Positions 11,071 through 30,462 of a stretch of DNA of 32,000 bases are shown one piece after another (positions within the stretch are counted from its first letter, which is position 1; every line of letters begins with the position of its first letter). The notes below the pieces were generated by a model. That model did not search any database. It had not been told where the DNA came from and saw nothing but the letters and a program-made list of their open reading frames with translations. The position numbers were made by a program, and so were the translations under genes. Source of the DNA: Candidatus Methanophagaceae archaeon (GTDB taxonomy: Archaea; Halobacteriota; Syntropharchaeia; Alkanophagales; Methanospirareceae); the NCBI GenBank assembly GCA_003194425.1, contig PQXB01000001.1, forward strand, positions 1,049,810 to 1,081,809, written 5' to 3'.

Positions 11071-11126
11071 AGACAGAGAAGTTGAGACAGAGAAGTTGAG
11101 ACAGAGAAGTTGAGACAGAGAAGTTG
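11071..11126. repeat. Perfect 14-nt tandem repeat x4 (agacagagaagttg) starting at the base after the eno stop codon
   Basis: Units 11071-84, 11085-98, 11099-112 and 11113-126 are identical. Confidence 0.95.
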
Positions 11127-11152
11127 ATGGAGTAGAAACAGGGACAAGGAGA

Positions 11153-12197: not shown

Positions 12198-13214
12198 ATG
12201 CGTCGCAGAATAATCTGGGTAAGACCTCGTAAAGAGAAAAATATCAGCATTGACCGAGGCAGAATTGCAGAGAAATTAGAGGAAAGGGGAAAATTAGAGG
12301 AAAGGGGAAACTATGAAGTTGTGGTTAAAACTGGAATTGATTTTGGTCTGCTAAAACTACTTCTCTTTGGCAGGTACGATTGTTTGGTTGGCACGACGAG
12401 AATTGGTGCAGTTGCTGGACTGCTTGCCAAGATGCGGGCTAAAAAAGTCTTTATTGACCACGTTGACCCGATCGAGCAGTTTAGAGTAACCGACGGTAGG
12501 TTTAAGGCAAGGGTGGTAGAAGGTGTCGAGAATTTAGCTTTTCGTTTTTCTGACGCTGTCTTTCTTACGAATGAGGAAGATAAGCTAAGAGTAAGCAAAA
12601 GAGCGAAAAAAATGATAGTATCAAGATTAGGAATAGATTATAAAAGCTTTGCAAATACAAGTAAAAATGCAATAGAAAAGGCGGAATCTCTTTTGAAATC
12701 AAAAGATATAAATATAAGAGATAAAATTGTTACTTACACAGGTGGTTTTGAGGACATCTATCATCTCGACAAATTGGTTTTGGCTATGAAACTATTAAAG
12801 GATTGGCTGCTCCTCCTGGCAGGTTCAGGAAGTGCTGAAGACAAGCTCAGGGAAATAGTGCAAAAGGAGGGGTTGGAGAATGTGCATTTCTTGGGCTCGT
12901 TGAATCATAATTTTATCCCTGGCATTCTTCTCTTCTCAAATGTCTGCGTTACGCTTTGTGAGACGCCGAGGCAGCAAAAAATTCTTGAGTACGCTGCCAG
13001 CAGAACGCCGATCGTTGCTCCGAAGAAAGTGAAAAAGATGTTCCCTCGCGTTCAAGCGACTGATTTAGAACCTGGCGAAGTAGCCTCAAATATTAAGAAA
13101 GCGGTGAAAGTACCTGACTCGTGGTTAGCCGAATTCCAAGCAGAAACGCAGAAATATGATTATGAAAAAGTAGCAGATTTATACGAATTCGTTATAAAAG
13201 ACTTACTTTTATAA
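12198..13214 (+). CDS. Putative GT-B (GT4/GT1-like) glycosyltransferase
   Basis: C-terminal half: LLLAGSGSAEDKLREIV...VHFLGSL...ILEYAASRTPIVAP resembles the GT4 donor-binding domain. The N-terminal half is weakly informative. Confidence 0.55.
   Translation: MRRRIIWVRPRKEKNISIDRGRIAEKLEERGKLEERGNYEVVVKTGIDFGLLKLLLFGRYDCLVGTTRIGAVAGLLAKMRAKKVFIDHVDPIEQFRVTDGRFKARVVEGVENLAFRFSDAVFLTNEEDKLRVSKRAKKMIVSRLGIDYKSFANTSKNAIEKAESLLKSKDINIRDKIVTYTGGFEDIYHLDKLVLAMKLLKDWLLLLAGSGSAEDKLREIVQKEGLENVHFLGSLNHNFIPGILLFSNVCVTLCETPRQQKILEYAASRTPIVAPKKVKKMFPRVQATDLEPGEVASNIKKAVKVPDSWLAEFQAETQKYDYEKVADLYEFVIKDLLL
12273..12308. repeat. In-frame perfect 18-nt tandem repeat x2 (aaattagaggaaagggga)
   Basis: 12273-12290 equals 12291-12308. 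Encodes KLEERG KLEERG. Confidence 0.93.
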
Positions 13215-13223
13215 ATTTTAACG

Positions 13224-13961
13224 ATGAAGGAGGAAGCAGCAATTAAAGTCCTACACCAAGCAAAGGCAGCACTCGACAAAGAGGATGTTGAGTTTTGGTT
13301 AGATTTTGGGACATTGTTGGGTGCTGTAAGGGACGGAAAATTCATTGCGTGGGAGAACGACATCGATTTTGGCACTTGGCGAGCGAATGCCTCTAAAGTA
13401 TTTTCAGCATTCCGAAAACTTCGCGAAAACGAGAAAGGGTTTATAAAAGTGTGTGACGAAAACCAGTGCATAAAGTTTATAACAGAAAATGGCTGTCGTC
13501 TCGATGTTACTTTATATCGTTTAGAAGGGAGCAGTGCAGTGAGGAAATTTTTTCCGATGAAACAAACAAACACAGGACTTCTTCTTTCTCATTTGCGAGA
13601 TGTGTTAGCAATTCCGCCTCACATAAAACTCAACCCTGAAGAGCTGAGAGCGCCGTTCGTCACGCAAAACCTCTTTAAAATTACCCGCCCGCTCCCCTCC
13701 TCGTGGAGAAGGCAACTCGCTAAAATTGTGACGAAGGTTTATAAAAAAATTGGCTGCAACTGTGTTCAGGTGGCAGTGCCGAGCCACTATTTTATGAATT
13801 TATCAAGCATAAATTTTTATGGGGCGGAATTTAAAGTGCCTGCTGAGACGGTGGAGTACTTGGCTTACAAGTACGGTGAAGATTGGAGGGTCCCAAGACG
13901 GGATTGGGTGTACTACGAAGACGACCGTTCAATTGTAGAAAAAATAAATAAAGAAGCGTAG
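13224..13961 (+). CDS. LicD-family phosphotransferase (transfers a phospho- or phosphono-alcohol from a CDP/CMP-activated donor to a glycan)
   Basis: FWLDFGTLLGAVRDGKFIAWENDIDFG (LicD GTLLG...DxD core) and the C-terminal ...FYGAEFKVPAETVEYLAYKYGEDW. Confidence 0.75.
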   Translation: MKEEAAIKVLHQAKAALDKEDVEFWLDFGTLLGAVRDGKFIAWENDIDFGTWRANASKVFSAFRKLRENEKGFIKVCDENQCIKFITENGCRLDVTLYRLEGSSAVRKFFPMKQTNTGLLLSHLRDVLAIPPHIKLNPEELRAPFVTQNLFKITRPLPSSWRRQLAKIVTKVYKKIGCNCVQVAVPSHYFMNLSSINFYGAEFKVPAETVEYLAYKYGEDWRVPRRDWVYYEDDRSIVEKINKEA

Positions 13962-13983
13962 AAAAAAGAAAGGAGAGAAAAAT

Positions 13984-14092
13984 AAGGGAGAGGAGGAAAG
14001 GAGAGAGGAAGAAAGGAGAGAGGAGGAAAGGGGAGAGGAGGAAAGGAGAGAGGAAGAGAGAAGGAAGAGGAAAGAGGGAGGAGGGGAAAAAA
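13984..14092. repeat. 109-nt uninterrupted polypurine tract (+ strand) with a 15-nt periodic core (ggagagaggaRgaaa, ~5 units at 13985-14059), ending at the ppm start codon
   Basis: Read base by base: only a and g from 13984 to 14092. The whole 130-nt intergenic gap contains a single T (13983) after the upstream stop. There are multiple GGAGG motifs. Confidence 0.93.
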
Positions 14093-15756
14093 TGATAAAA
14101 TCTAAAAAATTAAGGGAGCTGTTTAAGAAAGACGGCGTGATAAAAATAGTAGGAGCGCACGACGGAATTACAGCCAAATTAGTAGAGCTGAACGGTTTTG
14201 ACGGCGTTTGGGCGAGCGGACTTGAAGTCTCAACTTCGTACGCAGTTCCTGACGCAAATATTCTAACGATGACGCAGTACCTTCAAGCGGCTTCGGTAAT
14301 GAACGACGCAGTCTCAATTCCCGTCGTTGCCGACTGCGACACAGGCTACGGGAACTCAAACAATGTAATGTTTATGGTGAAAAAATATGAAACAGCAGGG
14401 ATTGCCGCGGTCACAATCGAAGATAAATTATTCCCAAAGGTTAACAGCTACATTCCAGGGCGTCAAGAATTAGCACCCATTGCCGAGTTTGTAGGTAAGA
14501 TTTTAGCGGCTAAAAATGCGCAGGCGACCGAGGATTTTATGGTTATCGCAAGAGTAGAGGCACTGATTGCAGGGTGGGGGCAGGAGGAAGCGTTGAAGAG
14601 GGCACACGCTTATGTGCAGGCAGGTGCGGACGCGATTCTCATTCACTCCAAAGCCAGCACGCCTGATGAAATCGCTCGTTTTGCGAAGGCGTGGGACTTC
14701 TCTGCTCCTTTAGTCATCGTTCCTACGGCGTATCCTATGATCTCTTTAGAAGAGGTAGAGGAGTTGGGTGTGAAAATGGTGATCTACGCGAATCACGGGC
14801 TGAGGGCGGAAATTAAAGCAATAAACGAAGTCCTTTCTCAAATCCGGGAAGAAGGGCGATTGGACAGAATAAACGACAAAATTGTGCCGATGAGCGAGGT
14901 CTTTGAACTTCAGGGAATGACGCAGATGAAAGAGACAGAGAAGATCTTTTTGAGGTCCGGCGAAGAGGAGGTTAAAGTAATTATTCCCGCTGCAGGCGCA
15001 CCTTCTGCCCACAATCAAACCTCGCTCGAACCCCTACTTCAAGACAGACCGCTCGCTGCGTTAGACATAAACGGCAAGTCCATTTTACAGCGGAACATTG
15101 AGACTCTGAACAAGAGCAAGTTGTACGACATTTCGGTAGTTAGAGGCTACAAGAAGGCAGCGTTAGGGGTAGAGGGCGTGACTTATTTTGACAATCCGAA
15201 ACACCAGTCGGAGCACATTTTGAGTTCGATTTTCTGCGCCGAAGAGAAAATGGACTGCAAGACTTTGATTATTTATTCTGATATTTTATTTGAGAATTGG
15301 TTAATTGAACGTTTGAAATCCGTGAATTCTGATTTTGTAATTGTTGTTGACAATTCATTTAAAAGATCGCTCAACCGAAACAAGAAGTTAGACTTGGTTG
15401 TCACGAAAGAGAGTTTGGTCTTGGGCGACCGCGTCTTGACTTACGAGCATTTGTACGAGGTGGAGAAAATAGGCAAGACGCTTCCCGAAGAGACTGCAAG
15501 TGCGGAATTTATCGGCGTAGCAATGTTCTCTAAAAAGGGCGTTGAGATTTTTAAAAAAGTGTACCACGACGCGTTAAGAGAATACAAAAATAAACCTTTT
15601 CACGAGGCGGAGAATATATTTCAGGCTTCGTTAGAAGACCTGCTGCAGCATTTAATCGAGCTTGGTTACAAGGTGGAGGCGCTGCAGGTAAATTCGGGCT
15701 GGATGGAAATTCACACTTTTGAGAACTACAAATTTGCCTGCTCGATCGTTCGTTAA
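14092..15756 (+). CDS. ppm: Phosphoenolpyruvate mutase (N-terminal ~290 aa) fused to a nucleotidyltransferase domain (C-terminal ~250 aa)
   Basis: Isocitrate-lyase/PEP-mutase fold (GAHDGITAKL...ADCDTGYGN) with the Ppm-specific signature EDKLFPKVNS (EDKX5NS). The C-terminal half starts VIIPAAG... and looks like a sugar/alcohol-phosphate NTP-transferase. Confidence 0.9.
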   Translation: MIKSKKLRELFKKDGVIKIVGAHDGITAKLVELNGFDGVWASGLEVSTSYAVPDANILTMTQYLQAASVMNDAVSIPVVADCDTGYGNSNNVMFMVKKYETAGIAAVTIEDKLFPKVNSYIPGRQELAPIAEFVGKILAAKNAQATEDFMVIARVEALIAGWGQEEALKRAHAYVQAGADAILIHSKASTPDEIARFAKAWDFSAPLVIVPTAYPMISLEEVEELGVKMVIYANHGLRAEIKAINEVLSQIREEGRLDRINDKIVPMSEVFELQGMTQMKETEKIFLRSGEEEVKVIIPAAGAPSAHNQTSLEPLLQDRPLAALDINGKSILQRNIETLNKSKLYDISVVRGYKKAALGVEGVTYFDNPKHQSEHILSSIFCAEEKMDCKTLIIYSDILFENWLIERLKSVNSDFVIVVDNSFKRSLNRNKKLDLVVTKESLVLGDRVLTYEHLYEVEKIGKTLPEETASAEFIGVAMFSKKGVEIFKKVYHDALREYKNKPFHEAENIFQASLEDLLQHLIELGYKVEALQVNSGWMEIHTFENYKFACSIVR

Positions 15757-16377
15757 GCGGTTAGGCGTCGTTAGTTGGGTTACGGTGAAATTAGAGAGGT
15801 TAGTAAGAAACCTCTTTTTTATGAACTGCGGTTCGTGAGAGACCCTGGGCACTTCTCGCTCACCGCTCTCAATCTTTGCTAAAACAAAAGAAGGTCCTTC
15901 TCTTTCTGAGTCGGACCCCAAAATCTCGCTCACAACAGTGCGCAATTCTTGAACTGAACTAACTTTTTTAACTGTTTTGTAGCCCACAGCCCTCGCAATC
16001 TCTTCCAACCTCACCTTACTTGAGACCGTTCGCTGCCCTCCTGTAGAAGCGTGCATTTCGTTATCCAGGAGAAAATGAAGCAGGTTACTCGGTGCGAAAT
16101 GCCCGATCGTTGCAAGCGAGCCCAAGTTCATCAGAAGGTTGCCGTCGCCGTCTAAGACCACTACTCTTTTGTAGGGTAGAGAGAGCGACAAACCAAATCC
16201 AATTGACGACGCCAAGCCCATTGAACCGAGCATATAAAAATTGCAGGCGGAATCTCGGATTGAGAATAGTTCCCTGCTAATTTTTCCGTTTGCGGAAATT
16301 ACTAGCTCGTCCCCTTTCAATTCTTTGGTAATTTCTTCGATCGCTTCATATCTTCTCATCTTTTTCTTTTTATTCAC
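15652..16377 (-). CDS. Phosphonopyruvate decarboxylase, beta (C-terminal TPP/PP-domain) subunit; sulfopyruvate decarboxylase ComE-like
   Basis: TPP-binding motif LDGDGNLLMNLGSLATIG and ...GSMGLASSIGFGL. It is adjacent to the alpha subunit and to ppm. The last ~35 codons run antisense through the ppm 3' end. The start is either GTG 16377 or ATG 16359. Confidence 0.7.
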   Translation of the reverse strand: MNKKKKMRRYEAIEEITKELKGDELVISANGKISRELFSIRDSACNFYMLGSMGLASSIGFGLSLSLPYKRVVVLDGDGNLLMNLGSLATIGHFAPSNLLHFLLDNEMHASTGGQRTVSSKVRLEEIARAVGYKTVKKVSSVQELRTVVSEILGSDSEREGPSFVLAKIESGEREVPRVSHEPQFIKKRFLTNLSNFTVTQLTTPNRLTNDRAGKFVVLKSVNFHPARIYLQRLHLVTKLD

Positions 16378-16382
16378 TCTTT

Positions 16383-16880
16383 TTATTCAATCACTCCCCT
16401 TCTTATAATTATCGCGGTTGGCAGGCTCCTCTCGTTAATTATCTTGACCGCCTCCAAGAGTGTCTCTTCCGCCTTCTCTTTCTCTTTCGGCAGCACCCTT
16501 GCAGGCACACCAATTTCCACCAAGAGTTTTAGAGTGCTCTTTCCCATTAAAATATGTTCTGGTGCGTCTCGTCCCTGAAACCCTCTCCACGAAATTAAGA
16601 GCAGCAGCGGGATTTCATAAAGCAAGACCAAAGAGGCAAGCGTGCCGATTGAATTGCCCATTCCAGAATTTTGCATAAGAACAACCGGCTTCTTGCCTGC
16701 AAGATATGCGCCAGTCGCGATTCCAATTGCTTCGTCTTCCCTCGTTGCGGGAATGTAAGGAAGATCCAGGTCTTCAGAAAGATAATTAATCACGCCCTTT
16801 AAAATAGAGCAGGGCACGCCAGTGTAGAAATCAAATCCCTTCTCCTTTAGCGCCACGCAGAAGTCTTTTGTTGAAGTCAT
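16383..16880 (-). CDS. Phosphonopyruvate decarboxylase, alpha (N-terminal PYR-domain) subunit; ComD-like
   Basis: FYTGVPCS...YIPATREDEAIGIATGAYLAGKKPVVLMQNSGMGN is the TPP-enzyme pyrimidine-binding domain. The gene is 165 aa, and the split-gene arrangement matches ComD/ComE. Confidence 0.7.
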   Translation of the reverse strand: MTSTKDFCVALKEKGFDFYTGVPCSILKGVINYLSEDLDLPYIPATREDEAIGIATGAYLAGKKPVVLMQNSGMGNSIGTLASLVLLYEIPLLLLISWRGFQGRDAPEHILMGKSTLKLLVEIGVPARVLPKEKEKAEETLLEAVKIINERSLPTAIIIRRGVIE

Positions 16881-16984
16881 TTTTTTGTTTTCTTGTGGTT
16901 AAAATCTCTTTATTCAGTTAAAAAGATATTTTTATTTTAAAGAAGGAGTAAAGTAGAAGTGGGATAAATAAGTGCGATAAATTT

Positions 16985-18049
16985 ATGAAAATGAGACAAA
17001 ATTTTGAACTCTTGTTGCCGAAGAAGATAATCTTTGGAGCAGGGAGTGTTAAAAAGGTAGGAGACGAGGCGAAGAATCTTGGCGGTAAAAACGCAGTAAT
17101 TGTTGTTAGTCGGGGAATGAGAAAGCGGGAGGGTTTTAAGGAACTGACCGAGTCCTTAAACCGCCAAGAAATCGGGTCAAAGACCGTCTGCGAAGTGGAG
17201 CCTGAACCGAAAATAGAAGAGATCTACAACTGCATTAAAACAGCCGAAGCAGAGGTAGAAGAAGAGGTAGAAGCAGACGGTGGTAATTTGGTAATCGGGT
17301 TAGGAGGAGGGAGTGTCTTAGATGTTGCTAAGAAAGTTGCGGCGGATTTAGGGTGGAAGAAAATAATGATTCCTACAACTGCGGGGACGGGCAGCGAGGT
17401 AACGCACGAAGCGGTTCTTAAAGTAGAGGGCAGGAAGAGGGCGTTTGTTGATGAACTCTTAACGCCGGACATTGCGATTGTTGATCCAGACCTTATGAAA
17501 ACGATGCCACCGAGACTGGTAGCCAGTTCTGGCATTGATGCGCTTGCACATTCGATCGAGTGCTACGATTCGAAGAGAAGTAATTTTTTGGTTAAGACGC
17601 TCGCTTCTGATGCCTACAAAATACTCAAGGAGAACCTAAGAAAAGCGGTAGAAGGGGACGAAGAAACGGAGAAAGAAGGAAAGGCAAAGGAAGAAGCGAT
17701 GGAAAAGATGGCTTTAGGAAGTTTGATGGCTGGGATGGCTTTTGGCAATTCGGGGACTGCTTTAGCGCACGCACTTTCCTACCCGCTCTCGAATGAGGGA
17801 ATACCGCACGGCGAGGCGGTTGCGATGGTTTTGCCTTACGCACTTGAGTTTAATGGTTTTGATGCGAGCGTTATAAAAGAGGTAAAGAGGATTATAAAAG
17901 ACCTCCGCATAGGACGAGCGATTAAAACAGAGATTGCAGAGATGGCAGAGGTCGTGATGCAGGACGAGAAACATCTCTCTAACAATCCTCGTGAGGTGAG
18001 GTTCAAAGATGTCGTTCAGATTTACGAGAATCTTAAAAACGAGAATTAA
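16985..18049 (+). CDS. Group III iron-containing alcohol dehydrogenase; by context a phosphonoacetaldehyde reductase (2-hydroxyethylphosphonate-forming)
   Basis: GLGGGSVLDVAKK...IPTTAGTGSEVT...SGIDALAHSIE...HGEAVA are Fe-ADH motifs. The family call is strong. The substrate call rests only on the ppm/ppd neighbourhood. Confidence 0.75.
   Translation: MKMRQNFELLLPKKIIFGAGSVKKVGDEAKNLGGKNAVIVVSRGMRKREGFKELTESLNRQEIGSKTVCEVEPEPKIEEIYNCIKTAEAEVEEEVEADGGNLVIGLGGGSVLDVAKKVAADLGWKKIMIPTTAGTGSEVTHEAVLKVEGRKRAFVDELLTPDIAIVDPDLMKTMPPRLVASSGIDALAHSIECYDSKRSNFLVKTLASDAYKILKENLRKAVEGDEETEKEGKAKEEAMEKMALGSLMAGMAFGNSGTALAHALSYPLSNEGIPHGEAVAMVLPYALEFNGFDASVIKEVKRIIKDLRIGRAIKTEIAEMAEVVMQDEKHLSNNPREVRFKDVVQIYENLKNEN
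17251..17274. repeat. In-frame 12-nt tandem repeat x2 (agaggtagaaga / agaggtagaagc)
   Basis: Encodes (E)VEE EVEA, inserted in a loop of the ADH. Confidence 0.8.
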
Positions 18050-18808
18050 ATGAAAGCGTTAATTCTTGCGTCCGGAGCAGGAAAAAGGCTGCGTCCTCTT
18101 ACTTACGAGATACCGAAGCCGTTAATAAAAGTAAGAGGTAAGACAATTTTGAATTATCTTGTGAATAATTTGATTGCGTGTGGCGTTAGGGAAATAATAA
18201 TAACGACAGGTGCTTTTGAAGACAAAATAAAGAAGTTTATGAGGGAAGAATTTCCGAGCGAGAAATTCCCGAATGTCAAGGTCTCTTATATGAATAACCC
18301 AAATTACAAAACAACGAATTATATCTGTTCAATGTGGTTGGCGAGGGGGTTGGTAGACGATGATGTGATTTTGGTTCACGGGGATTTGTTGTTTGAGGTG
18401 GGGCTGTTGAGGAGGTTGATTAACGAAAAATATGCTAATTGTGTCTTGGTGAACAGGAAGATTAAAGGACCAGAGAAAGATTTCAAAGCGGTGATTGAAG
18501 ACGGGAGAGTGGTTAAAATAGGCGTGGAGTTTTCAGGAGAGAATGCCTTTTTTTCTGTACCGTTGTATAAATTCTCTAGGGTTGATTTTCGGTCTTGGCT
18601 TGACGAGGTCGGAATTTTTATTAAAAATGGCGAGACAAAAAGATACGCAGAGGACGCTTTTAACAAAATATCTGATAAAATTATGCTTCACCCTGTTTAT
18701 TTTGAGGATGAGTTTTGTGTAGAAATAGACACTGAGAGAGATTTGGAAACGGCAAATAAGTTGGTTAGCAATTTAGTCAAGGCAAGAACAAACCTAAAAA
18801 ATGAGTAG
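18050..18808 (+). CDS. Nucleotidyltransferase (LicC / sugar-phosphate NTP-transferase family)
   Basis: MKALILASGAGKRLRPLTYEIPKPLIKV is the N-terminal signature. Its ATG directly abuts the ADH stop codon. Confidence 0.8.
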   Translation: MKALILASGAGKRLRPLTYEIPKPLIKVRGKTILNYLVNNLIACGVREIIITTGAFEDKIKKFMREEFPSEKFPNVKVSYMNNPNYKTTNYICSMWLARGLVDDDVILVHGDLLFEVGLLRRLINEKYANCVLVNRKIKGPEKDFKAVIEDGRVVKIGVEFSGENAFFSVPLYKFSRVDFRSWLDEVGIFIKNGETKRYAEDAFNKISDKIMLHPVYFEDEFCVEIDTERDLETANKLVSNLVKARTNLKNE

Positions 18809-19607
18809 AAGCAGCGAGTCAATAAAAGAATTGCGAGAGATTTGTCAGGAGAGTAGGTACGCGGCGGAGGGAGGAATGCCGTGGTTTGAGAGGTATTTTT
18901 ATAGAAGTGTCTCCATTCACTTCACAAAAATATTCTTAAAAATCGGAATATCTGCAAATCAAGCAACTTTATTGAGTCTTATCTTTGGATTATTTGGTGG
19001 TTTTTTCTTAATATTTACAAATCTAGGGTTCTGGGCATTGGCAATCGGTGCTTTATTTCTGGTTCTTTGTCTAATATTTGACCGAGTCGACGGCGAAATA
19101 GCGAGATACAAGAAATCGTGCTCAAAAGTGGGGGCGCATTTTGATCTTATGGTCGGTTCAACTCTTCATCCGTATCTCTTATTTTGTATGACTTTTGGTG
19201 CGTTTAATGTGTTGCAGGATACAACTGTTTTTATCTTCGGTTTTTTAGCAGTGATTTTAAACCTGTTGTATGAAATTCATCTCATTTCTTATGAAGAAAA
19301 ATGGGGTGGTAAATTTGAGAATAAAAGAAAGGCAACAAAAGATAAAAAAGGGGAGCGGCAAGGAAGAATCATTGAGAAATATGCGTACAGACCAGTAAGA
19401 CGAGTTAGTTCTTTTTTAGGACCTGGTGCCATCATTTATGCAATTTTAATAGTTGTAGCTTTAGATCTCTGTTTTGCACCTTTCCGCTTGGAGAATGTTC
19501 CAATCTTCTTCGTAATAAATGCAAGATATGCGTTTTTAATCATTTATTCAGTCGGTAAAATCGGCTCTTTCGTAGTGAAAGCAGAAAAACTCATTCAGCA
19601 AACTTAA
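18801..19607 (+). CDS. CDP-alcohol phosphatidyltransferase-family membrane protein (variant motif)
   Basis: The motif DRVDGEIARYKKSCSKVGAHFDLMVG matches D-x2-DG-x2-AR-x8-G-x3-D-x3-(D), but the last Asp is Gly. The protein is polytopic and overlaps the upstream gene by 8 nt. Confidence 0.7.
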   Translation: MSRSSESIKELREICQESRYAAEGGMPWFERYFYRSVSIHFTKIFLKIGISANQATLLSLIFGLFGGFFLIFTNLGFWALAIGALFLVLCLIFDRVDGEIARYKKSCSKVGAHFDLMVGSTLHPYLLFCMTFGAFNVLQDTTVFIFGFLAVILNLLYEIHLISYEEKWGGKFENKRKATKDKKGERQGRIIEKYAYRPVRRVSSFLGPGAIIYAILIVVALDLCFAPFRLENVPIFFVINARYAFLIIYSVGKIGSFVVKAEKLIQQT

Positions 19608-19628
19608 AAATGAAAAAGGAGAAGGGAG

Positions 19629-19678
19629 AAGGAGAGAAGAATGGGACAGAAGGAGAGAAGAATGGGACAGAAGGAGAG
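19629..19678. repeat. Perfect 21-nt tandem repeat x2.4 (aaggagagaagaatgggacag) duplicating the SD-like motif and the ATG
   Basis: 19629-19649 equals 19650-19670, followed by the partial unit aaggagag. ATGs at 19641 and 19662 are in frame. Confidence 0.93.
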
Positions 19679-21617
19679 GGAAAAGAATCTTCTAAGAAAC
19701 TCAGACATCGTCTTTTTTGACAATTTAAAAGCGCTTAAGACTTTTAAAGACGCGGAAAAAAAAACGCTGTTTTTCACTCTTGATAAAAACTTGTGTGAGA
19801 AAGCAAGGGCAAAGGGTTTTATTTGTAGAGCTCCAGACGACTATTTGGGATCAAAAGATTTGGAGACAACGAACTCTGACTTTGATTTAATGCGGAAGTG
19901 GCTCTCTAAATTGGCTGCTTACGACGGTTTTAATCTCGGTTCGCTGGTCCCCGACTTGTTTATTAACCTCGAGGCAATGCAGAAGTTCCGTGTGTTCAAG
20001 ATTCTCAGGGAAGTAATTGACCAAGAAAAGCCGAAATCCGTGAAAGTCGCAGCAAAAGGAAAACAGATTTATCGCTGGAGTGAAGTGGGAGACCGGGAGA
20101 TTCCTGCCAGTTTGGCTGAAGCAATCGCAAAAGACAGAGGAATCGTTTTTAAATCTGAGAATATTTGTTTGACAACGCGGATAAAAAACAGGCTGTTTCG
20201 TTCTACGGCGCCGTTTCTCTTAAGAAGTATTGAAAAAATTGTAGAAAGCGGCATTCGAATAAAACATGGCAAAATTTCAAAAAACGCAAGTGCAAATGCA
20301 AATACAGAAGCAAACGCAAAGATTTTAATATTCCTGCACAGCAACAAGAATTGGCAGGTTATCGAGCCAGTCTTGAAACGTCTTGGAAAGGAGGGGGAGG
20401 GAAAGGAGGGAGAGGGAAAGGAGAGAGAGGGGGGAAAGGGGATTGAACTCTTAATAATCTACCAATCGCACGGGTTTTTTAACTTCGGTTTGAGCAGGAG
20501 AGACTACGAACACCTACAAGATCTCGGTGCAGTGCGTTCTTTCGAGTCTTACCAAACAAAAACAATTTATAAAATTGCGACTGAAGAACGTAAGCGTTTA
20601 AAAAAGTTGTGGGACGAAATATTGAACGATGACGAATTTCAGAAGAATTTTCGTCTTGGCAATGTTGCTGTTTGGAAGGCGTTCGAGGATTGTTTTTGGC
20701 TTTACTACGCGGTTCAATTTCCGAGGCTGGTAAAATACATAGAAACCGGAAAACGAATCTTGGAGATTGAAGAGCCAGAAGTGGTTCTTTTTTTAGGCGA
20801 CGGTCCTCTTCCCTCCAGAACCTTCTCAACGGTTGCAGAGAAATTTCAAGTTCCCACCGTTCTGATTTCACACGGAATTTATTTTCCGACAAAAAGATAT
20901 ATTCCAAACTCTAAATATGTCGCAGTCTGGGGTCCGAAATTGGGAGAATATATGATTTTAACGGGCTTGAGTAAAGAGCAAATTACTGCTACAGGCGCTC
21001 CAAATTACGATGCGTTAGCGAAACTTGGAAGCAAAGAGGAGCTTAGAAGAGAGCTTGGTCTTCCTGAGAATAAGCCCTTAGTAACATTCGCAACTCAAGG
21101 TTTTAGTGACCAAATAAGGAGGAAATTAATTTTTGAAGTTTTGAAAAGCATGAAGAAATTAGATGAAGTTTTACTTGTTATTAAACCACACCCGAGAGAG
21201 AAACCGAAATTATACCGTAATCTTTTAAAAGAGTTTAATGCAGACATTTCTTCAGACAAAATCGTGTTAATGCCTGGAGTTAACACCAGCAAACTCGTGA
21301 AAGCCTCGGACCTCCTACTAACCGTGCATTCTACGGTCGCTTTAGAGTCGAATGTAATCGGAACGCCTGTTGTAACCCTGAATTTTACGGCAGAGAAAGA
21401 CCTCTTCTACTCGCAGGAAGGAGGAGCAGTTGGGGTTGAAAATCCCGAAACTTTGACTAACACGATTTACAAGGCTCTGTTTGACGAGGAGTTCAGAGAA
21501 GAAATGAAGATTAACCGAGACGAGTTTCTACGAAAATTTATCGCGTGTAAAGATGGTGGTGCTGCCGAAAGAGCGGCGGATTTAGTGCTGGAGGTGATGA
21601 AAAAATCAAAGAAATAA
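19641..21617 (+). CDS. Large two-domain protein; the C-terminal half resembles TagF-type CDP-alditol/glycerophosphotransferases (GT-B-like)
   Basis: The C-terminal region ...VTFATQGF...LLVIKPHPREK...ASDLLLTVHSTVALESNVIGTPVV resembles the Glyphos_transf pattern (KPHP ... D....S). The N-terminal ~350 aa is uninformative. Confidence 0.5.
   Translation: MGQKERRMGQKEREKNLLRNSDIVFFDNLKALKTFKDAEKKTLFFTLDKNLCEKARAKGFICRAPDDYLGSKDLETTNSDFDLMRKWLSKLAAYDGFNLGSLVPDLFINLEAMQKFRVFKILREVIDQEKPKSVKVAAKGKQIYRWSEVGDREIPASLAEAIAKDRGIVFKSENICLTTRIKNRLFRSTAPFLLRSIEKIVESGIRIKHGKISKNASANANTEANAKILIFLHSNKNWQVIEPVLKRLGKEGEGKEGEGKEREGGKGIELLIIYQSHGFFNFGLSRRDYEHLQDLGAVRSFESYQTKTIYKIATEERKRLKKLWDEILNDDEFQKNFRLGNVAVWKAFEDCFWLYYAVQFPRLVKYIETGKRILEIEEPEVVLFLGDGPLPSRTFSTVAEKFQVPTVLISHGIYFPTKRYIPNSKYVAVWGPKLGEYMILTGLSKEQITATGAPNYDALAKLGSKEELRRELGLPENKPLVTFATQGFSDQIRRKLIFEVLKSMKKLDEVLLVIKPHPREKPKLYRNLLKEFNADISSDKIVLMPGVNTSKLVKASDLLLTVHSTVALESNVIGTPVVTLNFTAEKDLFYSQEGGAVGVENPETLTNTIYKALFDEEFREEMKINRDEFLRKFIACKDGGAAERAADLVLEVMKKSKK
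20385..20441. repeat. In-frame 15-nt tandem repeat (~3.5 imperfect units, ggaaaggagggRgag)
   Basis: The units at 20385-20399, 20400-20414 and 20415-20429 differ at 1-3 positions. Encodes GKEGE GKEGE GKERE GGKG. Confidence 0.85.
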
Positions 21618-21973
21618 TGCAAACAATTTTGCTTTTAGGCGTAGGCTTGGCCGCAGGCGTGGTGAGTTCAATGCTCGGCGTTGGTGGTGGCATAATTTTA
21701 GTTCCCCTTCTTATTTTGTTAATGAACCTCGAGCCGCACCAAGCAGTAGGAACTTCTTTGGCGATTATTATTCCGACCGTGCTGGCTGGTGCTTTAACGC
21801 ACTACCGACTGGGGAATGTTAATGTGCAGTTAGCGCTGATTATCGGCGTAGGAGGAGTAGTGGGTGCGGTAGTAGGTGCTCATTTTGCGGAGGCACTGCC
21901 GTCTTTGTATTTGAAAAAGGTTTTTGGTGTTTTGCTTTTTATAATTGCGATAAAGATGATTGTAAGTCGTTAA
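21617..21973 (+). CDS. Half-size TSUP (TauE/SafE, DUF81) family membrane transporter
   Basis: GAGVVSSMLGVGGGIILVPLL...AVGTSL is the TSUP repeat signature. It is only 118 aa (one repeat unit). Its ATG shares one base with the upstream TAA. Confidence 0.65.
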   Translation: MQTILLLGVGLAAGVVSSMLGVGGGIILVPLLILLMNLEPHQAVGTSLAIIIPTVLAGALTHYRLGNVNVQLALIIGVGGVVGAVVGAHFAEALPSLYLKKVFGVLLFIIAIKMIVSR

Positions 21974-22036
21974 AGAATTAGAGAGTAAGGAGCTTTAGAT
22001 TTAGGTGGAAAATTAAAAATAAATAGGTAACAAAAA

Positions 22037-22525
22037 ATGGAGCAAAAGAATAAGACAAAGACCAAAGGGAAAAATATTGTAGCAATAATTCCAGCACGCG
22101 GCGGATCTACTGGACTTCCAAGGAAAAATATAAAATCGTTAGCAGGGAAGCCACTAATTGCATATTCTATTGAGGCAGCATTAAAATCAAAATATATTGA
22201 TAAAGTTATTGTCTCGACAGAAGACGAAGAAATTGCTGAAATATCAAGAAGATACGGTGCTAAAGTAATTGAGAGGCCAAAAGAGTTAGCAAAAGATATC
22301 ACACCAACTGAGCCAGTCTTAGAGCATATTCTTGAATGGTTAAAAGAAGACGAAGGTTATAAATCTGATATTATAATCTTATTACAACCTACTTCTCCCC
22401 TTAGAAATAGTAAACATATTGACGAAGCCTTAGATATATTTTTAAATAGAGATTATGATTCTTTATTAAGTGTGTGTCCTTCATCTGCATTTCTGTGGAG
22501 GATAGGAGAGACCTTCATTGGATAA
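22037..22525 (+). CDS. Acylneuraminate (CMP-sugar) cytidylyltransferase family protein, apparently 3'-truncated
   Basis: IIPARGGSTGLPRKNIK...GKPLIAYSIEAA...LLQPTSPLR are NeuA/CMP-sugar synthetase motifs. The ORF stops at 162 aa, where ~220-230 aa is expected. No continuation is seen in the other frames. Confidence 0.65.
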   Translation: MEQKNKTKTKGKNIVAIIPARGGSTGLPRKNIKSLAGKPLIAYSIEAALKSKYIDKVIVSTEDEEIAEISRRYGAKVIERPKELAKDITPTEPVLEHILEWLKEDEGYKSDIIILLQPTSPLRNSKHIDEALDIFLNRDYDSLLSVCPSSAFLWRIGETFIG

Positions 22526-22560
22526 TTTCGGAAAAACATAACCAACTGACTTTGGAGAAG

Positions 22561-22959
22561 ATGAAAAAAAGAGATTCCTCTCTCTTCTTTTTGAGTAAAT
22601 ATGGCTTCTGGTATTTAATATTTCATCCAGCACATTTCGTTTCTGATTTGTTTAGTATTTTATTTTTGGTCATCGTCCCGATACTATTTCCTTTGAGTTT
22701 GTTTTTGATGAACTTAAAATTTATTATTTCGAATCTGATTTTAATTGCGATAATGTTATTAGCATATTATATTTATTCAGTATCAAATAACGTACCTTAT
22801 AGAATAGCATTAAAAAAGTGGGTTTTGTACGGCATCTCAATACCTTATGCAATAAAAAGACTGATTTTCCGAAAGAACGAGTGGAATTTAAAAGGGTTTG
22901 TCAGGAAATACGATTGGAATTTAGAAAGTTATCGAAATGATTCGATTAAAAAACAATAA
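22561..22959 (+). CDS. Hypothetical small membrane protein (very AT-rich)
   Basis: Hydrophobic helices (FWYLIFHPAHFVSDLFSILFLVIVPILFPLSLFLM..., LILIAIMLLAYYIY). No recognisable family. Start taken at ATG 22561 rather than 22474. Confidence 0.35.
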   Translation: MKKRDSSLFFLSKYGFWYLIFHPAHFVSDLFSILFLVIVPILFPLSLFLMNLKFIISNLILIAIMLLAYYIYSVSNNVPYRIALKKWVLYGISIPYAIKRLIFRKNEWNLKGFVRKYDWNLESYRNDSIKKQ

Positions 22960-22998
22960 ACACAAAAATAATTAATAATTAAAAAATGCCAAGTAAAA

Positions 22999-24051
22999 AT
23001 GCCGACTAAAAACGCTTTGATAACAGGAATAACAGGGCAGGACGGAGCATATCTCGCAAAATTCCTGTTAGAGAAAGGATACGCAGTTTACGGCACCTAC
23101 AGACGACTCTCAACACCAAACTTCTGGAGACTGCAGTACCTAAATATTTTTGAGCAGGTGGTTTTAATACCCGCGGATTTGGTTGACGCAGGGTCGATGG
23201 TGGAGGCGGTTAAAATCTCAGAACCCGATGAAATATACCATTTAGCAGCACAGAGTTTTGTAGGCGCTTCGTTTGAGCAGCCGATCGGTACGGGGGAAAT
23301 AACTGGTTTAGGTGTAACGAGGATTTTAGAAGCTATTCGGCAGATTAACCCCGCGATAAAGTTCTACCAAGCCTCAACCAGCGAACTCTACGGAAATGGA
23401 CATTCCTCAAGCTTGACAGAGAACTCACCCTTTCAGCCCTCAAGTCCTTATGCCGCAGCAAAATTATACGGCTACTGGCTGACAAAAATGTACAGGGAAA
23501 GCTACAAATTCTTTGCCTGCAACGGAATTCTTTTTAATCACGAAAGTCCCTTGAGGGGCTTGGAATTTGTAACACGAAAAATATCTAACGCAGTCGCAAA
23601 GATTTCTTTAGGACTTGAAAAAGAACTTCATCTCGGCAACTTAGAGGCAAAAAGAGACTGGGGTTACGCACCCGAATATGTAGAATCTATGTGGCGGATG
23701 TTGAAAGAAAAAGAGCCCGACGATTATGTGATCGCAACGAACGAGGCTCATAAAGTAGGCGAATTTGTAGAAAAAGCGTTTGACAGTCTTGGTTTAGACT
23801 GGCAGGAATATGTTGAAGTAGACAAAAGATTTTTTAGACCGCAGGATGTTAATTTTTTGCAGGGCGATTATTCGAAAGCGAAGAGGAAATTAGCCTGGAG
23901 GCCGAGGGTAAAATTCGACAAACTCGTAGAGAGAATGGTGAAAGAAGATTTAGAAAGGTGGGCGAGGTGGCAGAAAGGAGAGAGATTTCCTTGGGACGCA
24001 CCGAATTATCCGAATGAGTCAAATATCTTAACACGAACATTAAAAGTATGA
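22999..24051 (+). CDS. gmd: GDP-mannose 4,6-dehydratase
   Basis: ALITGITGQDGAYLAKFLLEKGY.VYG..RR...FYQASTSELYG...SPYAAAKLY..W....YRESY..F.CNGILFNHESP.RG are canonical Gmd motifs. Confidence 0.92.
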   Translation: MPTKNALITGITGQDGAYLAKFLLEKGYAVYGTYRRLSTPNFWRLQYLNIFEQVVLIPADLVDAGSMVEAVKISEPDEIYHLAAQSFVGASFEQPIGTGEITGLGVTRILEAIRQINPAIKFYQASTSELYGNGHSSSLTENSPFQPSSPYAAAKLYGYWLTKMYRESYKFFACNGILFNHESPLRGLEFVTRKISNAVAKISLGLEKELHLGNLEAKRDWGYAPEYVESMWRMLKEKEPDDYVIATNEAHKVGEFVEKAFDSLGLDWQEYVEVDKRFFRPQDVNFLQGDYSKAKRKLAWRPRVKFDKLVERMVKEDLERWARWQKGERFPWDAPNYPNESNILTRTLKV

Positions 24052-24098
24052 AGAAAAGTTGGAAAATCTAACGAAGAAGGTAAAATATTTAAAACAAA

Positions 24099-25948: not shown

Positions 25949-25960
25949 AGGAAAGGAAAA

Positions 25961-30406: not shown

Positions 30407-30426
30407 TTTCGCTTGCTAAACGCTGT

Positions 30427-30448: not shown

Positions 30449-30462
30449 GCAAATAAAGTTTG

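Follow-up and report, generated by a model that had tools for sequence, protein, structure and literature searches.

A methane oxidiser of the ANME-1 group (Candidatus Methanophagaceae) encodes a gene set predicted to make 2-hydroxyethylphosphonate (HEP), to activate it with CTP and to attach it to a surface glycan, and the set is apparently functional. We consider it likely that this stretch encodes the core of a Pnt-type phosphonyl-tailoring system for cell-surface decoration, in which HEP would be passed via CMP-HEP onto a surface glycan; all products named here are predictions. Pathways of this type are known in bacteria and in marine Thaumarchaeota, and we know of no report of one from the archaeal group to which ANME-1 belongs. 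In the window (the whole 32-kb stretch of DNA that was analysed), every ORF that an earlier note on this DNA had listed was found at its coordinates, and profile searches confirmed the families with matches far beyond chance. The biosynthetic and activation genes are the following.

14092..14961, plus strand: PEP mutase (Ppm) domain, C-P bond formation (PF13714, 200 bits; TIGR02320)
14962..15756, plus strand: degenerate LicC-like nucleotidyltransferase (NT)-fold domain fused to Ppm (PF12804; PDB profile search)
15775..16359, minus strand: phosphonopyruvate decarboxylase (Ppd) beta subunit, TPP-binding C-domain (TIGR03297)
16383..16880, minus strand: phosphonopyruvate decarboxylase alpha subunit, TPP N-domain (TIGR03297)
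16881..16984, no strand: AT-rich divergent spacer between ppdA and adh (sequence; TATA-like TTTATTTTAAAG)
16985..18049, plus strand: PhpC-type group III (Fe/Zn) alcohol dehydrogenase, ADH (PF00465 and PF25137)
18050..18808, plus strand: NT2, a canonical LicC/PntC-family nucleotidyltransferase (PF00483, 52.7 bits; PF12804, 36.8 bits)

Family membership, signatures and synteny suggest that Ppm would convert PEP to phosphonopyruvate, that PpdAB would irreversibly decarboxylate this to phosphonoacetaldehyde, and that the ADH would reduce the aldehyde to HEP. Ppm occupies the first part of a fusion ORF spanning 14092-15756 and, as the earlier note had read, carries the EDKx5NS motif (EDKLFPKVNS, aa 110-119, nt 14419-14448), which is kept in 23 of 23 aligned Ppm fusions; its TIGR02320 score of 324.8 bits is over the equivalog cutoff of 319.55. 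The domain fused to Ppm aligns at residue level with LicC 1jyk in a profile search against the PDB (4e-14), and its PF12804 score of 21.5 bits is under the Pfam GA of 27. Throughout the clade it has neither the Arg of GxGTR nor the Lys of the PK motif, which are the NTP-binding basic residues, whereas the Ppm-fused NT of Burkholderia keeps the basic loop (49.6 bits). Because these residues are lost, a structural or regulatory role is more likely than a catalytic one, and the domain appears to be probably non-catalytic or non-canonical, yet conserved.

The split decarboxylase is where a quite different chemistry has to be weighed. HMMs cannot tell Ppd from the ComDE enzyme of the coenzyme M (CoM) route: the alpha subunit scores 150.9 bits with TIGR03297 vs 147.3 with ComD, and the beta subunit 186.8 vs 185.8 with ComE. 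The ComD and ComE scores are both under their own cutoffs, while the Ppd score summed over the subunits (337.7) is above its cutoff of 312.5. Gene context can make the distinction. The nearest decarboxylase relatives (69-79% identity) lie in ppm clusters of the same divergent layout in all three neighbourhoods checked; the closest relatives of the beta subunit (69-72% identity) adjoin ppm in comparison loci L074-L076, and synteny of alpha-subunit/Ppd homologs with ppm extends to more than 40 loci. One of the three ppm-cluster relatives is auto-labelled sulfopyruvate decarboxylase. In the present strain the stop codon of the beta subunit (15775-15777) is mutated from TAA to CAA relative to six variants, and because of this stop-loss SNP the ORF is lengthened to 15652 and reads as 15652-16377. 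The cassette is under strong purifying selection: population differences number 15 synonymous in Ppm, 11 in the alpha subunit and 13 in the beta subunit, 39 in all, with no non-synonymous change in any of the three. The spacer between the divergent ppdA and adh, with its TATA-like TTTATTTTAAAG, is a probable bidirectional promoter.

In 12 loci (L001-L009, L062, L074, L076) an ADH homolog shows synteny with ppm/ppd, and T258-x3-H262-A-x-S-Y266-P is invariant in all 12 ppm-linked ADHs; at the columns where these carry Thr and Tyr, FucO and DhaT have L/N and His. The pair matches the phosphonate-ligand residues of PhpC, Thr256/Tyr264 (PMC13576164), the equivalence of Tyr264 being drawn from spacing and alignment offsets, not from direct alignment to a characterised PhpC. 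The score against the curated PhpC/PsrA model is 138.7, far under 423.7. The route from PEP to HEP proposed by the earlier note is thus supported, and it withstood the refutations that could be run: by context beside ppm, at near-equal HMM scores, the decarboxylase groups as Ppd and not as ComDE, and the ADH has the PhpC-type signature and synteny with ppm.

We regard it as extremely unlikely that the genes instead serve sulfonate metabolism, with ComDE and a sulfoacetaldehyde reductase yielding isethionate for export by TauE. Besides the near-equal HMM scores, this would accord with the public annotation of close relatives as sulfopyruvate decarboxylase, with 156 bits for the SarD model on the ADH, with the sulfonate exporters of the TauE family and with the need of ANME-1 for CoM. 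However, a bona fide Ppm adjoins the decarboxylase here and in all close relatives, the nearest bacterial homologs come from Dehalococcoidia, which do not make CoM, and the residue that is Phe in sulfoacetaldehyde reductases is Tyr in the ADH (PMC13576164).

On the phosphonate route, the identity of the end product turns on the enzyme acting on phosphonoacetaldehyde, which the ADH is predicted to convert to HEP. The sister cluster L075 carries Aminotran_5 (AEPT) and a methyltransferase where the ANME-1 cluster has the ADH; ADH/AEPT is therefore a branch point, as described for phosphonate pathways (PMC8942020). The 32-kb window holds no AEPT-like sequence, even at E=10, no cupin, 2OG-oxygenase or radical-SAM ORF, and no MpnS or HepD, in agreement with the earlier note's reading of this neighbourhood, and for this reason HEP is the best-supported product. 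The known HEP consumers HepD, MpnS and DhpA depend on O2, and ANME-1 lives strictly anaerobically. An AEPT or another tailoring enzyme could lie elsewhere in the genome, and the analysis covers 32 kb of it; ppm clusters moreover lead most often to AEP (56%; PMC8942020), the sister cluster is of the AEPT type, and methyltransferases occur in the variable region. We nevertheless find it decidedly unlikely that unlinked enzymes convert HEP onward or that an AEPT elsewhere turns most of the phosphonoacetaldehyde into AEP, given that the ADH sits in the branch-point slot, is translationally contiguous with NT2, and is matched by the NT, which co-varies with ADH or AEPT.

This co-variation is seen in NT2 itself, whose identity is 65-66% within ADH-type clusters vs 35% to the AEPT-type cluster. 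Among solved structures it is closest to Tde-PntC, an AEP cytidylyltransferase and its top PDB match (6pd1, 7e-11), and the catalytic loop GAGKRLRPLT..PKPL is intact. At the position of the amine-ligand Glu104 of Tde-PntC, NT2 has His110, which is His in 7/7 ADH-type clusters, and the NT of L075, the sole AEPT-type data point in the clade, has Asp. NT2 alone accompanies the cassette in Dehalococcoidia, and its population pN/pS is 0.07. As precedents, Fom1 and PntC convert HEP and AEP, respectively, to the CMP derivatives (PMC6697681), and the free NT2 is likely a CMP-HEP synthase (HEP cytidylyltransferase), which would join HEP and CTP. Nucleotide activation, which the earlier note had linked to both nucleotidyltransferases, is thus credible for NT2 as a cytidylyltransferase and improbable for the Ppm-fused NT with its lost catalytic basic residues.

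The remaining genes of the region point to glycan assembly and to transfer from CDP- or CMP-linked donors.

11153..12184, plus strand: GT2 glycosyltransferase (PF00535, 78.9 bits; synteny in L064-L069)
12198..13214, plus strand: GT4/GT1-family glycosyltransferase, first gene of the island (PF13692 and PF00534; GC 0.40)
13224..13961, plus strand: LicD-family phosphotransferase (PF04991, 52.3 bits vs GA 22.6)
13966..14089, no strand: polypurine (A/G-only) tandem-repeat spacer between licD and ppm (sequence; TRF)
18801..19607, plus strand: CDP-alcohol phosphotransferase-family membrane protein, CDPOH (PF01066, 37 bits vs GA 22)
19641..21617, plus strand: GT-B transferase (TagF-like), 658 aa (PF04464, 47 bits vs GA 22.1)
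21617..21973, plus strand: half-length (4-TM) TauE/TSUP anion-transporter homolog (PF01925, 103 bits)
21974..27541, no strand: strain-variable sugar-modification segment of the same low-GC island (Pfam; GC)

The phosphonate genes lie in a low-GC glycan-assembly island of 15 kb (12198-27541, by GC and annotation of the window), which also encloses the GTs, Wzx and the sugar-nucleotide genes; the GT2 gene at 11153..12184 (native GC 0.53) is just beyond its edge and is kept beside the cluster in all population variants. The functional island reaches past 21973, where the earlier note had set its right edge and where comparison with population variants places a strain-level recombination breakpoint, population identity stopping at 21961. 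Intact copies of the cluster occur on at least 21 contigs, which come from several samples. Beyond the breakpoint lie a truncated CMP-sugar synthetase remnant, a small membrane ORF, GDP-mannose 4,6-dehydratase, a DegT aminotransferase, a methyltransferase and, on the minus strand, the Wzx flippase; this DNA is unrelated to that downstream of TauE in L064-L066 (DegT-442, methyltransferase, GFO_IDH_MocA and a full CTP_transf_3). In the present strain, the ppdB stop-loss and the truncated CMP-sugar synthetase speak against the proposed system. The GT4/GT1-family gene holds an 18-nt coding repeat (TRF 12273-12310), and the licD/ppm spacer has repeats of period 15 x 8.1 and period 45 x 2.3 (TRF), with a strain-dependent length of 89-137 nt (gene calls, L064-L069).

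In the proposed scheme the glycan would be assembled by the adjacent GT2/GT4 enzymes and the variable sugar genes and then flipped by Wzx, so that the decorated glycan, plausibly an N-glycan, would stand on the envelope. The most speculative step is the transfer, in which hydroxyls of the lipid-linked oligosaccharide would receive the HEP-phosphonyl group of CMP-HEP; LicD and/or the CDPOH protein are candidates for this step. LicD has the DxD motif (WENDIDFG), 60 bits with the NCBIfam Mf1 cholinephosphotransferase model (under cutoff) and a population pN/pS of ~1.6 on small counts; it is a candidate for moving the group onto a glycan hydroxyl, and LicD occurs in phosphonate clusters (PMC6697681).

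The CDPOH protein bears most directly on whether the acceptor is a glycan or a lipid. Its family was as the earlier note had named it; its subfamily (142 members; L070-L073, L076, L077) shares an N-terminal ESIKELRxICQESRY segment and DxxDGExAR..G..D, is found in Wzx/GT loci rather than phospholipid loci in 4/4 non-ppm contexts, and does not conserve the fourth Asp of the signature, which has been proposed as the catalytic base in characterised CDP-alcohol transferases. Because most members have no ppm nearby, it may act on another CDP-alcohol, and it is also a candidate phosphonyl transferase onto a membrane-bound acceptor. That it instead moves the HEP-phosphonyl from CMP-HEP to an archaeol/diacylglycerol-type lipid alcohol as a head group, in the manner of the phosphonolipid clusters of Burkholderia ('CDP-OH' Group 1), seems unlikely to us. 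A Ppm-NT fusion, a second NT and a CDP-OH protein are indeed the Burkholderiales_CDP-OH architecture (PMC8942020; Burkholderia example inspected), the top NCBIfam matches of the protein are archaetidylinositol-phosphate synthase and DIPP synthase, far under cutoff, and its 8-nt overlap with NT2 recalls the fused IPCT-DIPPS; however, besides the glycan contexts of the subfamily and its lack of the fourth Asp found in lipid-synthase members, the cluster is surrounded by GTs, sugar-nucleotide enzymes, LicD and a flippase, and most Dehalococcoidia cassettes have no CDPOH.

In the GT-B protein (100% identical to Ca. Methanophagaceae protein C4B55_05335; AF2 pLDDT 91.5), the Glyphos_transf match (PF04464), which bears out the TagF likeness noted earlier, covers the C-terminal half, with near-invariant H517-P518; the N-terminal part is an extra alpha/beta domain. 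Foldseek finds UDP-GlcNAc 2-epimerases (1e-11) and TagF (3e-11), and the family elsewhere co-occurs with nonulosonic-acid genes and AglB (L077, L078), adjoining AglB in L078 with no phosphonate genes. Given this generic GT-B nature and these co-occurrences, its link to phosphonate is uncertain; in L077 the same combination of NT, CDPOH and GT-B lies downstream of a PhnD-type phosphonate importer. The donor of the GT-B enzyme is probably CMP-linked, and the enzyme may add a phospho/phosphono group or nonulosonic acid. The TauE half-gene, a half-size TSUP transporter as reported before, covers 1-110 of 237 PF01925 positions, starts within the GT-B stop and ends the strain-conserved block; L074 has a 125-aa homolog (65% identity), and full-length TauE genes adjoin CDPOH in L071. 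It may transport a small HEP-like anion.

Transporter genes (TauE here, EamA in L074-L076) and the Ppm-Ppd-PhpC trunk shared with fosfomycin, phosphinothricin, dehydrophos and argolaphos (PMC8942020, PMC13576164) would also suit a diffusible, antibiotic-like phosphonate. We hold such a product to be very improbable, as opposed to surface decoration: ATP-grasp, NRPS, oxygenase, rSAM and other tailoring genes are absent, all neighbours are glycan-assembly or CDP/CMP-donor transferase genes, and the site is a strain-variable surface-glycan island.

Compared with known systems, the earlier note overstated the novelty of euryarchaeal phosphonate conjugates, since ppm is already reported from about 1.6% of archaeal genomes (PMC8942020) and locus comparison finds ppm clusters of the AEP type in MAGs of Methanosarcinales and Nanoarchaeia. 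The five genes ppm-NT, ppdA, ppdB, adh and NT2, predicted to yield CMP-HEP, form a mobile cassette that the ANME-1 archaeon shares with Dehalococcoidia. HEP-glycans are known from Actinobacteria according to work cited in PMC8942020, and the ANME-1 cluster belongs to a known phosphonyl-tailoring pathway.

All of the open reading frames from which the earlier note had predicted a route to 2-hydroxyethylphosphonate (HEP), leading from PEP through phosphonopyruvate and phosphonoacetaldehyde, are present in the window, and they match their stated families at E-values far beyond chance. The observation is thus confirmed, and its interpretation is supported with corrections. The genes of the cluster are the following:

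13224–13961, LicD
14092–15756, PEP mutase with a C-terminal extension (Ppm-NT, 554 aa)
15775–16359, minus strand, beta half of a TPP enzyme (PpdB)
16383–16880, minus strand, alpha half of the TPP enzyme (PpdA)
16985–18049, group III alcohol dehydrogenase (ADH)
18050–18808, free nucleotidyltransferase (NT2)
18801–19607, CDP-alcohol-transferase-family membrane protein (CDPOH)
19641–21617, 658-aa TagF-like GT-B protein, C-terminal half Glyphos_transf
21617–21973, half-length TauE/TSUP protein

The first step of the route is assigned to Ppm, a member of the isocitrate-lyase superfamily set apart from the others by the catalytic motif EDKx5NS. The motif was read correctly in the earlier note (EDKLFPKVNS, aa 110–119) and is kept in 23 of 23 aligned fusions. 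Ppm also passes the curated equivalog TIGR02320 with 324.8 bits (cutoff 319.55), and the next-best model, phosphonopyruvate hydrolase, scores 300.2 bits, under its cutoff of 374.4. For the second step, a phosphonopyruvate decarboxylase (Ppd) has to be weighed against sulfopyruvate decarboxylase (ComDE). Profile models (TIGR03297 versus TIGR03845/03846) do not separate the two for the split enzyme of the window: the alpha subunit scores 150.9 bits with Ppd and 147.3 with the Com model (cutoff 147.95), and the beta subunit 186.8 and 185.8 bits, respectively (Com cutoff 221.5). Summed over the subunits, the Ppd scores reach 337.7, above the cutoff of 312.5, and both Com scores stay under their cutoffs. 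Because database names for the matches are automated and contradictory (one of the three ppm-linked closest relatives carries the automatic label “sulfopyruvate decarboxylase”), gene context was used instead. The PEP mutase reaction is thermodynamically unfavourable and needs a decarboxylase, hence the choice of coupling to ppm as the mark of a Ppd. In more than 40 of the loci fetched, ppm is immediately followed by homologs of both subunits, and the pair in the window adjoins ppm. In the closest relatives, three of three contexts have a 552–571-aa Ppm and the identical divergent layout, with identities of 69–72% for PpdB and 75–79% for PpdA. Gene context therefore settles the split decarboxylase as Ppd and not ComDE, and the grouping of the subunits with ComDE that would have told most strongly against the HEP route was not what these loci showed.

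Many ppm-linked Ppd beta subunits (P0131, P0133, P0170 and others) are annotated as “sulfopyruvate decarboxylase beta subunit” by public pipelines, which is likely a systematic mis-annotation. A Ppd labelled as a coenzyme M pathway enzyme in ANME or methanogen genomes can mislead metabolic reconstructions of archaeal MAGs. The ppdB gene of this strain alone also carries a stop-loss SNP (TAA to CAA at 15775–15777, minus strand), which lengthens PpdB by 41 aa, so that its ORF runs into the 3′ end of ppm; the stop is kept in six of six population variants, and the change may be genuine or may stem from an error in the assembly or consensus.

The third step determines whether the pathway leads to HEP or to 2-aminoethylphosphonate (AEP). 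The dehydrogenase has the fold (PF00465, 124.8 bits; PF25137, 96.8 bits) and, in the alignment, the metal ligands (D..H, H262 and H275) of a group III enzyme, as had been proposed, and it is syntenic with ppm/ppd in 12 loci. Within its motif T-x3-H-A-x-S-Y-P (Thr258, His262, Tyr266), Thr258 and Tyr266 recur without exception in the ppm-linked ADHs (12 of 12), and the negative controls FucO and DhaT have Leu/Asn and His in the corresponding columns. Their spacing equals that of Thr256/Tyr264, the phosphonate ligands of PhpC (P. fungorum numbering; a 2026 study, PMC13576164), an equivalence that is drawn from this spacing and the TIGR03405 alignment offset. The Tyr is strictly conserved in PhpC and replaced by Phe in sulfoacetaldehyde reductases (PMC13576164). 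The TIGR03405 (PsrA/PhpC) cutoff of 423.7 is not reached (138.7 bits); PhpC-type enzymes are highly divergent, with identities down to 26.8% (PMC13576164), so this model covers only a Burkholderia-like subgroup. A search of a plasmid collection for characterised PhpC or PsrA returned only generic Fe-ADHs of ~30% identity.

The statement that no AEP transaminase (AEPT) and no cupin/HepD/MpnS-like oxygenase lies nearby was borne out within the window by tblastn and Pfam. The AEPT of a closely related cluster gave only noise at E≤10 as a tblastn query, and the sole aminotransferase of the window, located in its variable region, is of the DegT sugar type. Neither a cupin nor a 2OG-oxygenase nor a radical-SAM protein was found among the window ORFs, the unassigned ones having no Pfam match at E≤1. 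The only large unannotated stretch, the N-terminal half of the 658-aa protein, consists of alpha/beta domains. A HepD/MpnS-like cupin hidden in the N-terminal ~440 aa of this protein was considered and rejected, as there is no Pfam match at E≤1 and the AF2 model is all alpha/beta GT-B plus an extra alpha/beta domain. The cluster that supplied the query, L075, has a Ppm-NT 83% identical to that of the window, yet its ADH slot holds an Aminotran_5 AEPT and a methyltransferase; ADH and AEPT are therefore alternative branch modules, as in the classification of Li & Horsman (PMC8942020). Among the fetched ppm loci, the ADH and AEPT probes placed the MAGs of Methanosarcinales and Nanoarchaeia and those Streptomyces loci with a probe match in the AEPT type, and the ANME-1 lineage, the closest-relative clusters L074 and L076, and Dehalococcoidia-like MAGs in the ADH type. 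The product of L075 (7036–13254), which has a different nucleotidyltransferase with Asp at the amine-ligand position, is predicted to be an AEP or N-methyl-AEP decoration. Every HEP-consuming enzyme known to us needs O2, and ANME-1 is a strict anaerobe. Given this host and a window with neither MpnS nor HepD, HEP itself is the predicted substituent.

Two nucleotidyltransferase-like domains could activate HEP, and the evidence points to NT2. It scores above the gathering thresholds of PF00483 (52.7 bits) and PF12804 (36.8 bits), its NTP-binding loop is intact (GAGKRLRPLT..PKPL) and aligns with LicC and Tde-PntC, and among solved structures its best match is the AEP cytidylyltransferase Tde-PntC. 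In Dehalococcoidia, no gene outside the trunk other than NT2 accompanies the cassette, which is followed there by housekeeping genes. Identity to NT2 is 65–66% in ADH-type clusters versus 35% in the AEPT-type L075. In Tde-PntC, Glu104 contacts the AEP amine (PMC6697681); this position is His in seven of seven nucleotidyltransferases from ADH-type clusters (His110 in NT2) and Asp in the single AEPT-type one (L075), which fits a putative HEP-specific variant rather than an AEP-specific PntC. On the basis of the loop, the kinship to PntC, the cassette linkage and the covariation with the branch, we assign CMP-HEP synthesis to NT2 as its predicted role. The nucleotide-activation step proposed earlier is thereby supported, with NT2 and not the Ppm-fused domain as the assigned cytidylyltransferase.

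The description of ppm as fused to a nucleotidyltransferase holds for the fold, since profile search places the C-terminal domain in the LicC family (LicC 1jyk, 4e-14); it does not hold for the catalytic residues. In LicC-type enzymes the Arg of GxGTR and the Lys of PK bind the NTP phosphates. By profile alignment to LicC, these are Ser and Leu in the fused domain, clade-wide, and its PF12804 score of 21.5 bits lies under the gathering score of 27, so it is not filed as an active PntC. The Burkholderia Ppm-fused domain retains both residues and scores 49.6 bits. The domain of the window, which has zero non-synonymous differences in the population, probably has a non-catalytic role, judging from these substitutions.

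Three candidate transferases could use CMP- or CDP-linked donors: LicD, the CDPOH homolog and the GT-B enzyme. The licD gene lies directly upstream of ppm. Its product matches PF04991 (52.3 bits versus 22.6), in an alignment limited to the N-terminal 54 residues, and remains far under the cutoff of the Mf1 equivalog (60 versus 225 bits). LicD has precedent in phosphonate clusters (PMC6697681, PMC9381506). The CDPOH gene overlaps NT2 by 8 nt, and its product scores 37 bits with PF01066 (GA 22). Its motif, DRVDGEIAR-x8-G-AHF-D-LMV-G, departs from the full signature D-x2-DG-x2-AR-x8-G-x3-D-x3-D at the fourth Asp, which we take to be the catalytic base; this Asp is not conserved in the subfamily, where Gly, His or others stand instead (29-sequence alignment). 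The subfamily is small (142 matches) and has a conserved cytoplasmic N-terminal segment, ESIKELRxICQESRY. In four of four diverse contexts it occurs without ppm, in Wzx/GT loci with at least one nucleotidyltransferase gene, and a ppm-specific transferase was rejected on this ground. This suggests a generic glycan phospho-substituent module rather than a lipid-head-group synthase. One context of this subfamily and the GT-B family, L077 (2721–11875), holds a PhnD-type ABC importer that binds phosphonate, after it two nucleotidyltransferases, a methyltransferase and both families, and then B12-rSAM and nonulosonic-acid genes, and it looks like a scavenge-and-attach version that follows the logic of the Lic pathway without ppm.

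The GT-B enzyme had been called TagF-like. PF04464 (47 bits, GA 22.1, C-terminal half only) and a Foldseek match of its model (pLDDT 91.5) to TagF (3e-11, TMt 0.57) agree with this name, but UDP-GlcNAc 2-epimerases match about equally (1e-11, TMt 0.71). The family has a near-invariant His-Pro, and in a context devoid of phosphonate genes (L078) it adjoins AglB and nonulosonic-acid genes; instead of CMP-HEP, it may use a CMP-nonulosonate as donor. The 658-aa protein shows 100% identity to a GenBank protein from a Candidatus Methanophagaceae (ANME-1) MAG. The acceptor is most consistently read as an N-glycan or another lipid-linked glycan. The half-size TSUP transporter of the earlier note was also recovered, as a 4-TM unit matching PF01925 (103 bits) over profile positions 1–110 of 237 only. 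Half-size TauE proteins of 118–125 aa are kept in the population and in L074 (731–1108), and recur in these archaeal glycan clusters; in another CDPOH context (L071), full-size TauE genes (7953–8675 and 14305–15126) flank CDPOH. Isethionate, whose phosphonate analogue is HEP, represents a type of substrate handled by TauE-family exporters. In L074, L075 and L076, ppm and ppdB are separated by an EamA (DMT) transporter gene (about 10600–11600), which is absent from the lineage of the window.

The cluster is flanked by archaeal genes (the H-I-F subunits of Fqo/Fpo, TFE-alpha, geranylgeranyl reductase, eukaryote-type S15/S17e and enolase). GC content drops from 0.53–0.56 to 0.31–0.47 exactly from the GT4 gene to the Wzx flippase (12198–27541), and the cluster therefore makes up the left half of a 15-kb glycan-assembly island of low GC. 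At least 21 contigs from several samples encode a Ppm-NT identical to that of the window, in each case preceded by enolase-GT2-GT4-LicD. Compared with six population contigs, the window is ~98.5% identical up to 21961, where identity stops at the TauE stop, and unrelated beyond. The GT2-to-TauE block is therefore strain-conserved, and the downstream sugar genes are swapped among strains: the window has a GDP-mannose dehydratase, DegT and a methyltransferase, and three variants (L064–L066, from about 17900) have a different DegT, a methyltransferase, GFO_IDH_MocA and a full CMP-sugar synthetase. A truncated CTP_transf_3 remnant of 162 aa (22037–22525) lies at the junction in the window, and the same three variants have a full 236-aa copy further on. 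No tRNAs were found in the window and no integrase among the ORFs scanned. Outside the island, 27553–31919 (minus strand) holds two large ORFs with weak similarity to Molybdopterin-oxidoreductase and Mur-ligase-M, followed by two nicotianamine-synthase-like genes (30463–31347 and 31413–31919).

Tandem repeats occur in and near the island. The licD-ppm spacer holds an A/G-only polypurine tandem repeat (13966–14089; period 15 × 8, period 45 × 2.3), and its length is strain-dependent, 130 nt in the window and 89, 107, 126 or 137 nt in the population variants L064–L069; such a tract upstream of ppm could serve for contingency or form H-DNA. Other purine-rich tandem repeats (19627–19678, 20385–20431, 12273–12310 and 11066–11127) lie within coding DNA and one spacer. 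Those in the GT-B gene lead to a doubled MGQKER at the N-terminus and to an inserted GKEGEG, with protein lengths of 649–667 aa across strains, and the coding repeat in GT4 gives GKLEERGKLEERG. The enolase-GT2 interval contains a 14-nt × 4.4 repeat.

The five-gene cassette is also found elsewhere. Colinear PpmNT-PpdA-PpdB-ADH-NT2 occurs in Dehalococcoidia and related MAGs, with identities of 68–78% for Ppm-NT, 50–57% for ADH and up to 51% for NT2. The closest clusters (L074–L076) have 83–84% identity in Ppm-NT, ppdAB inverted as in the window, and archaeal-type PIN and AF2212-like genes. Combined with the low GC, this distribution indicates that the cassette has moved laterally. Within the population, small counts from non-independent comparisons gave 39 synonymous and 0 non-synonymous differences for Ppm-NT, PpdA and PpdB together, and pN/pS ratios of 0.07 for NT2 versus 0.36 for enolase, and 0.66 for CDPOH. 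For LicD, 18 non-synonymous versus 3 synonymous differences from L064–L069 (pN/pS ~1.6, small counts) may reflect diversifying or relaxed selection on an acceptor-facing transferase. On these small counts, LicD and CDPOH evolve freely in the population.

Experimental evidence for phosphonate conjugates in Archaea is, as far as we are aware, limited to the methylphosphonate of Nitrosopumilus. The cluster predicts a second, chemically distinct archaeal phosphonate conjugate, HEP itself, in ANME-1. These uncultured methane oxidisers are of global importance, and little is understood of their envelope (PMC9012536). Our literature search returned no paper tying ANME-1 to phosphonate biosynthesis, and only C-P lyase catabolism in ANME-3 was discussed. 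The degenerate nucleotidyltransferase domain, the His/Asp covariation, a CDPOH without the fourth Asp and the half-size TauE had no earlier description in the sources consulted. The ADH/AEPT swap with its co-varying residue (His versus Asp/Glu), and the degenerate Ppm domain, could inform work on the enzymes and the prediction of products from sequence, and the CMP-HEP cassette is compact, conserved and suited to heterologous expression. We also put forward a broader proposal, although we think it rather improbable: the fused LicC-like domain, in ANME-1, Dehalococcoidia, Methanosarcinales, Planctomycetes and Streptomyces, would be a dead pseudo-nucleotidyltransferase under strong purifying selection, whose task would be to sense nucleotides or CMP-phosphonate, or to serve as a docking scaffold, and so to link the unfavourable mutase reaction to the activation downstream of it; ANME-1 would display HEP-esterified N-glycans, and the strain-variable island and the hypervariable polypurine tract before ppm would tune the surface against the ANME-1 virome or for contact with syntrophic partners. 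If this were true, such glycans would form a phosphatase-resistant anionic surface; the ANME-1 virome is large.

Of ppm clusters, 8.5% are HEP-type neighbourhoods, and 1.6% of archaeal RefSeq genomes carry ppm (PMC8942020). The gene set of the window is a Pnt-type phosphonate decoration cluster (PMC6697681). It comes close to the Burkholderia “CDP-OH” family (PMC8942020) in architecture and has the same trunk as the methylphosphonate cluster of Nitrosopumilus. Bacterial Pnt clusters (Treponema denticola, Atopobium rimae and Olsenella uli; Rice et al. 2019, PMC6697681) combine Ppm-Ppd-AEPT with PntC and LicD-like transferases. Common to these and the window are the Ppm/Ppd trunk, a LicC-family cytidylyltransferase, a LicD-family transferase and glycan-assembly neighbours, in parallel with the phosphocholine Lic pathway. 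Unlike them, the window has a PhpC-type ADH (HEP) instead of AEPT, His for Glu104, a degenerate Ppm-fused domain and an anaerobic methanotrophic archaeal host. The Burkholderiales_CDP-OH/Group 1 phosphonolipid family (Li & Horsman 2022, PMC8942020; Yu et al. 2013, as cited there) shares the Ppm-NT fusion, a free second nucleotidyltransferase and CDP-alcohol-transferase/phospholipid-type genes. It differs in having AEPT, a 2OG oxygenase (1-hydroxy-AEP), a canonical fused nucleotidyltransferase with a basic loop and a single-chain Ppd, and the Burkholderia stagnalis example inspected has no LicD gene and no glycan island. For the fusion itself, Fom1 of fosfomycin biosynthesis (Cho et al. 2017, as described in PMC6697681) is a precedent, and also for CMP-HEP as a real metabolite. 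Its cytidylyltransferase is, in that description, N-terminal, of PF01467 and active, whereas the fused domain of the window is C-terminal, LicC-like and without the NTP-binding residues. Actinobacteria have known HEP-glycans (cited in PMC8942020): the phosphonoglycans of Stackebrandtia nassauensis and Glycomyces (Yu et al. 2014, as summarised there) are the only structurally characterised HEP-glycan conjugates, and they share the PhpC-type branch with the window. These are actinobacterial exopolysaccharides, and the likeness is one of description. Nitrosopumilus maritimus (Metcalf et al. 2012, as reported in PMC8942020 and PMC9381506) is likewise archaeal and has the Ppm-Ppd-PhpC trunk to HEP, and the neighbouring nucleotidyl-, glycosyl- and LicD-type transferases suggest, in these reports, an exopolysaccharide ester. 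It has the O2-dependent MpnS that converts HEP into methylphosphonate, whereas the ANME-1 window has neither MpnS nor HepD.
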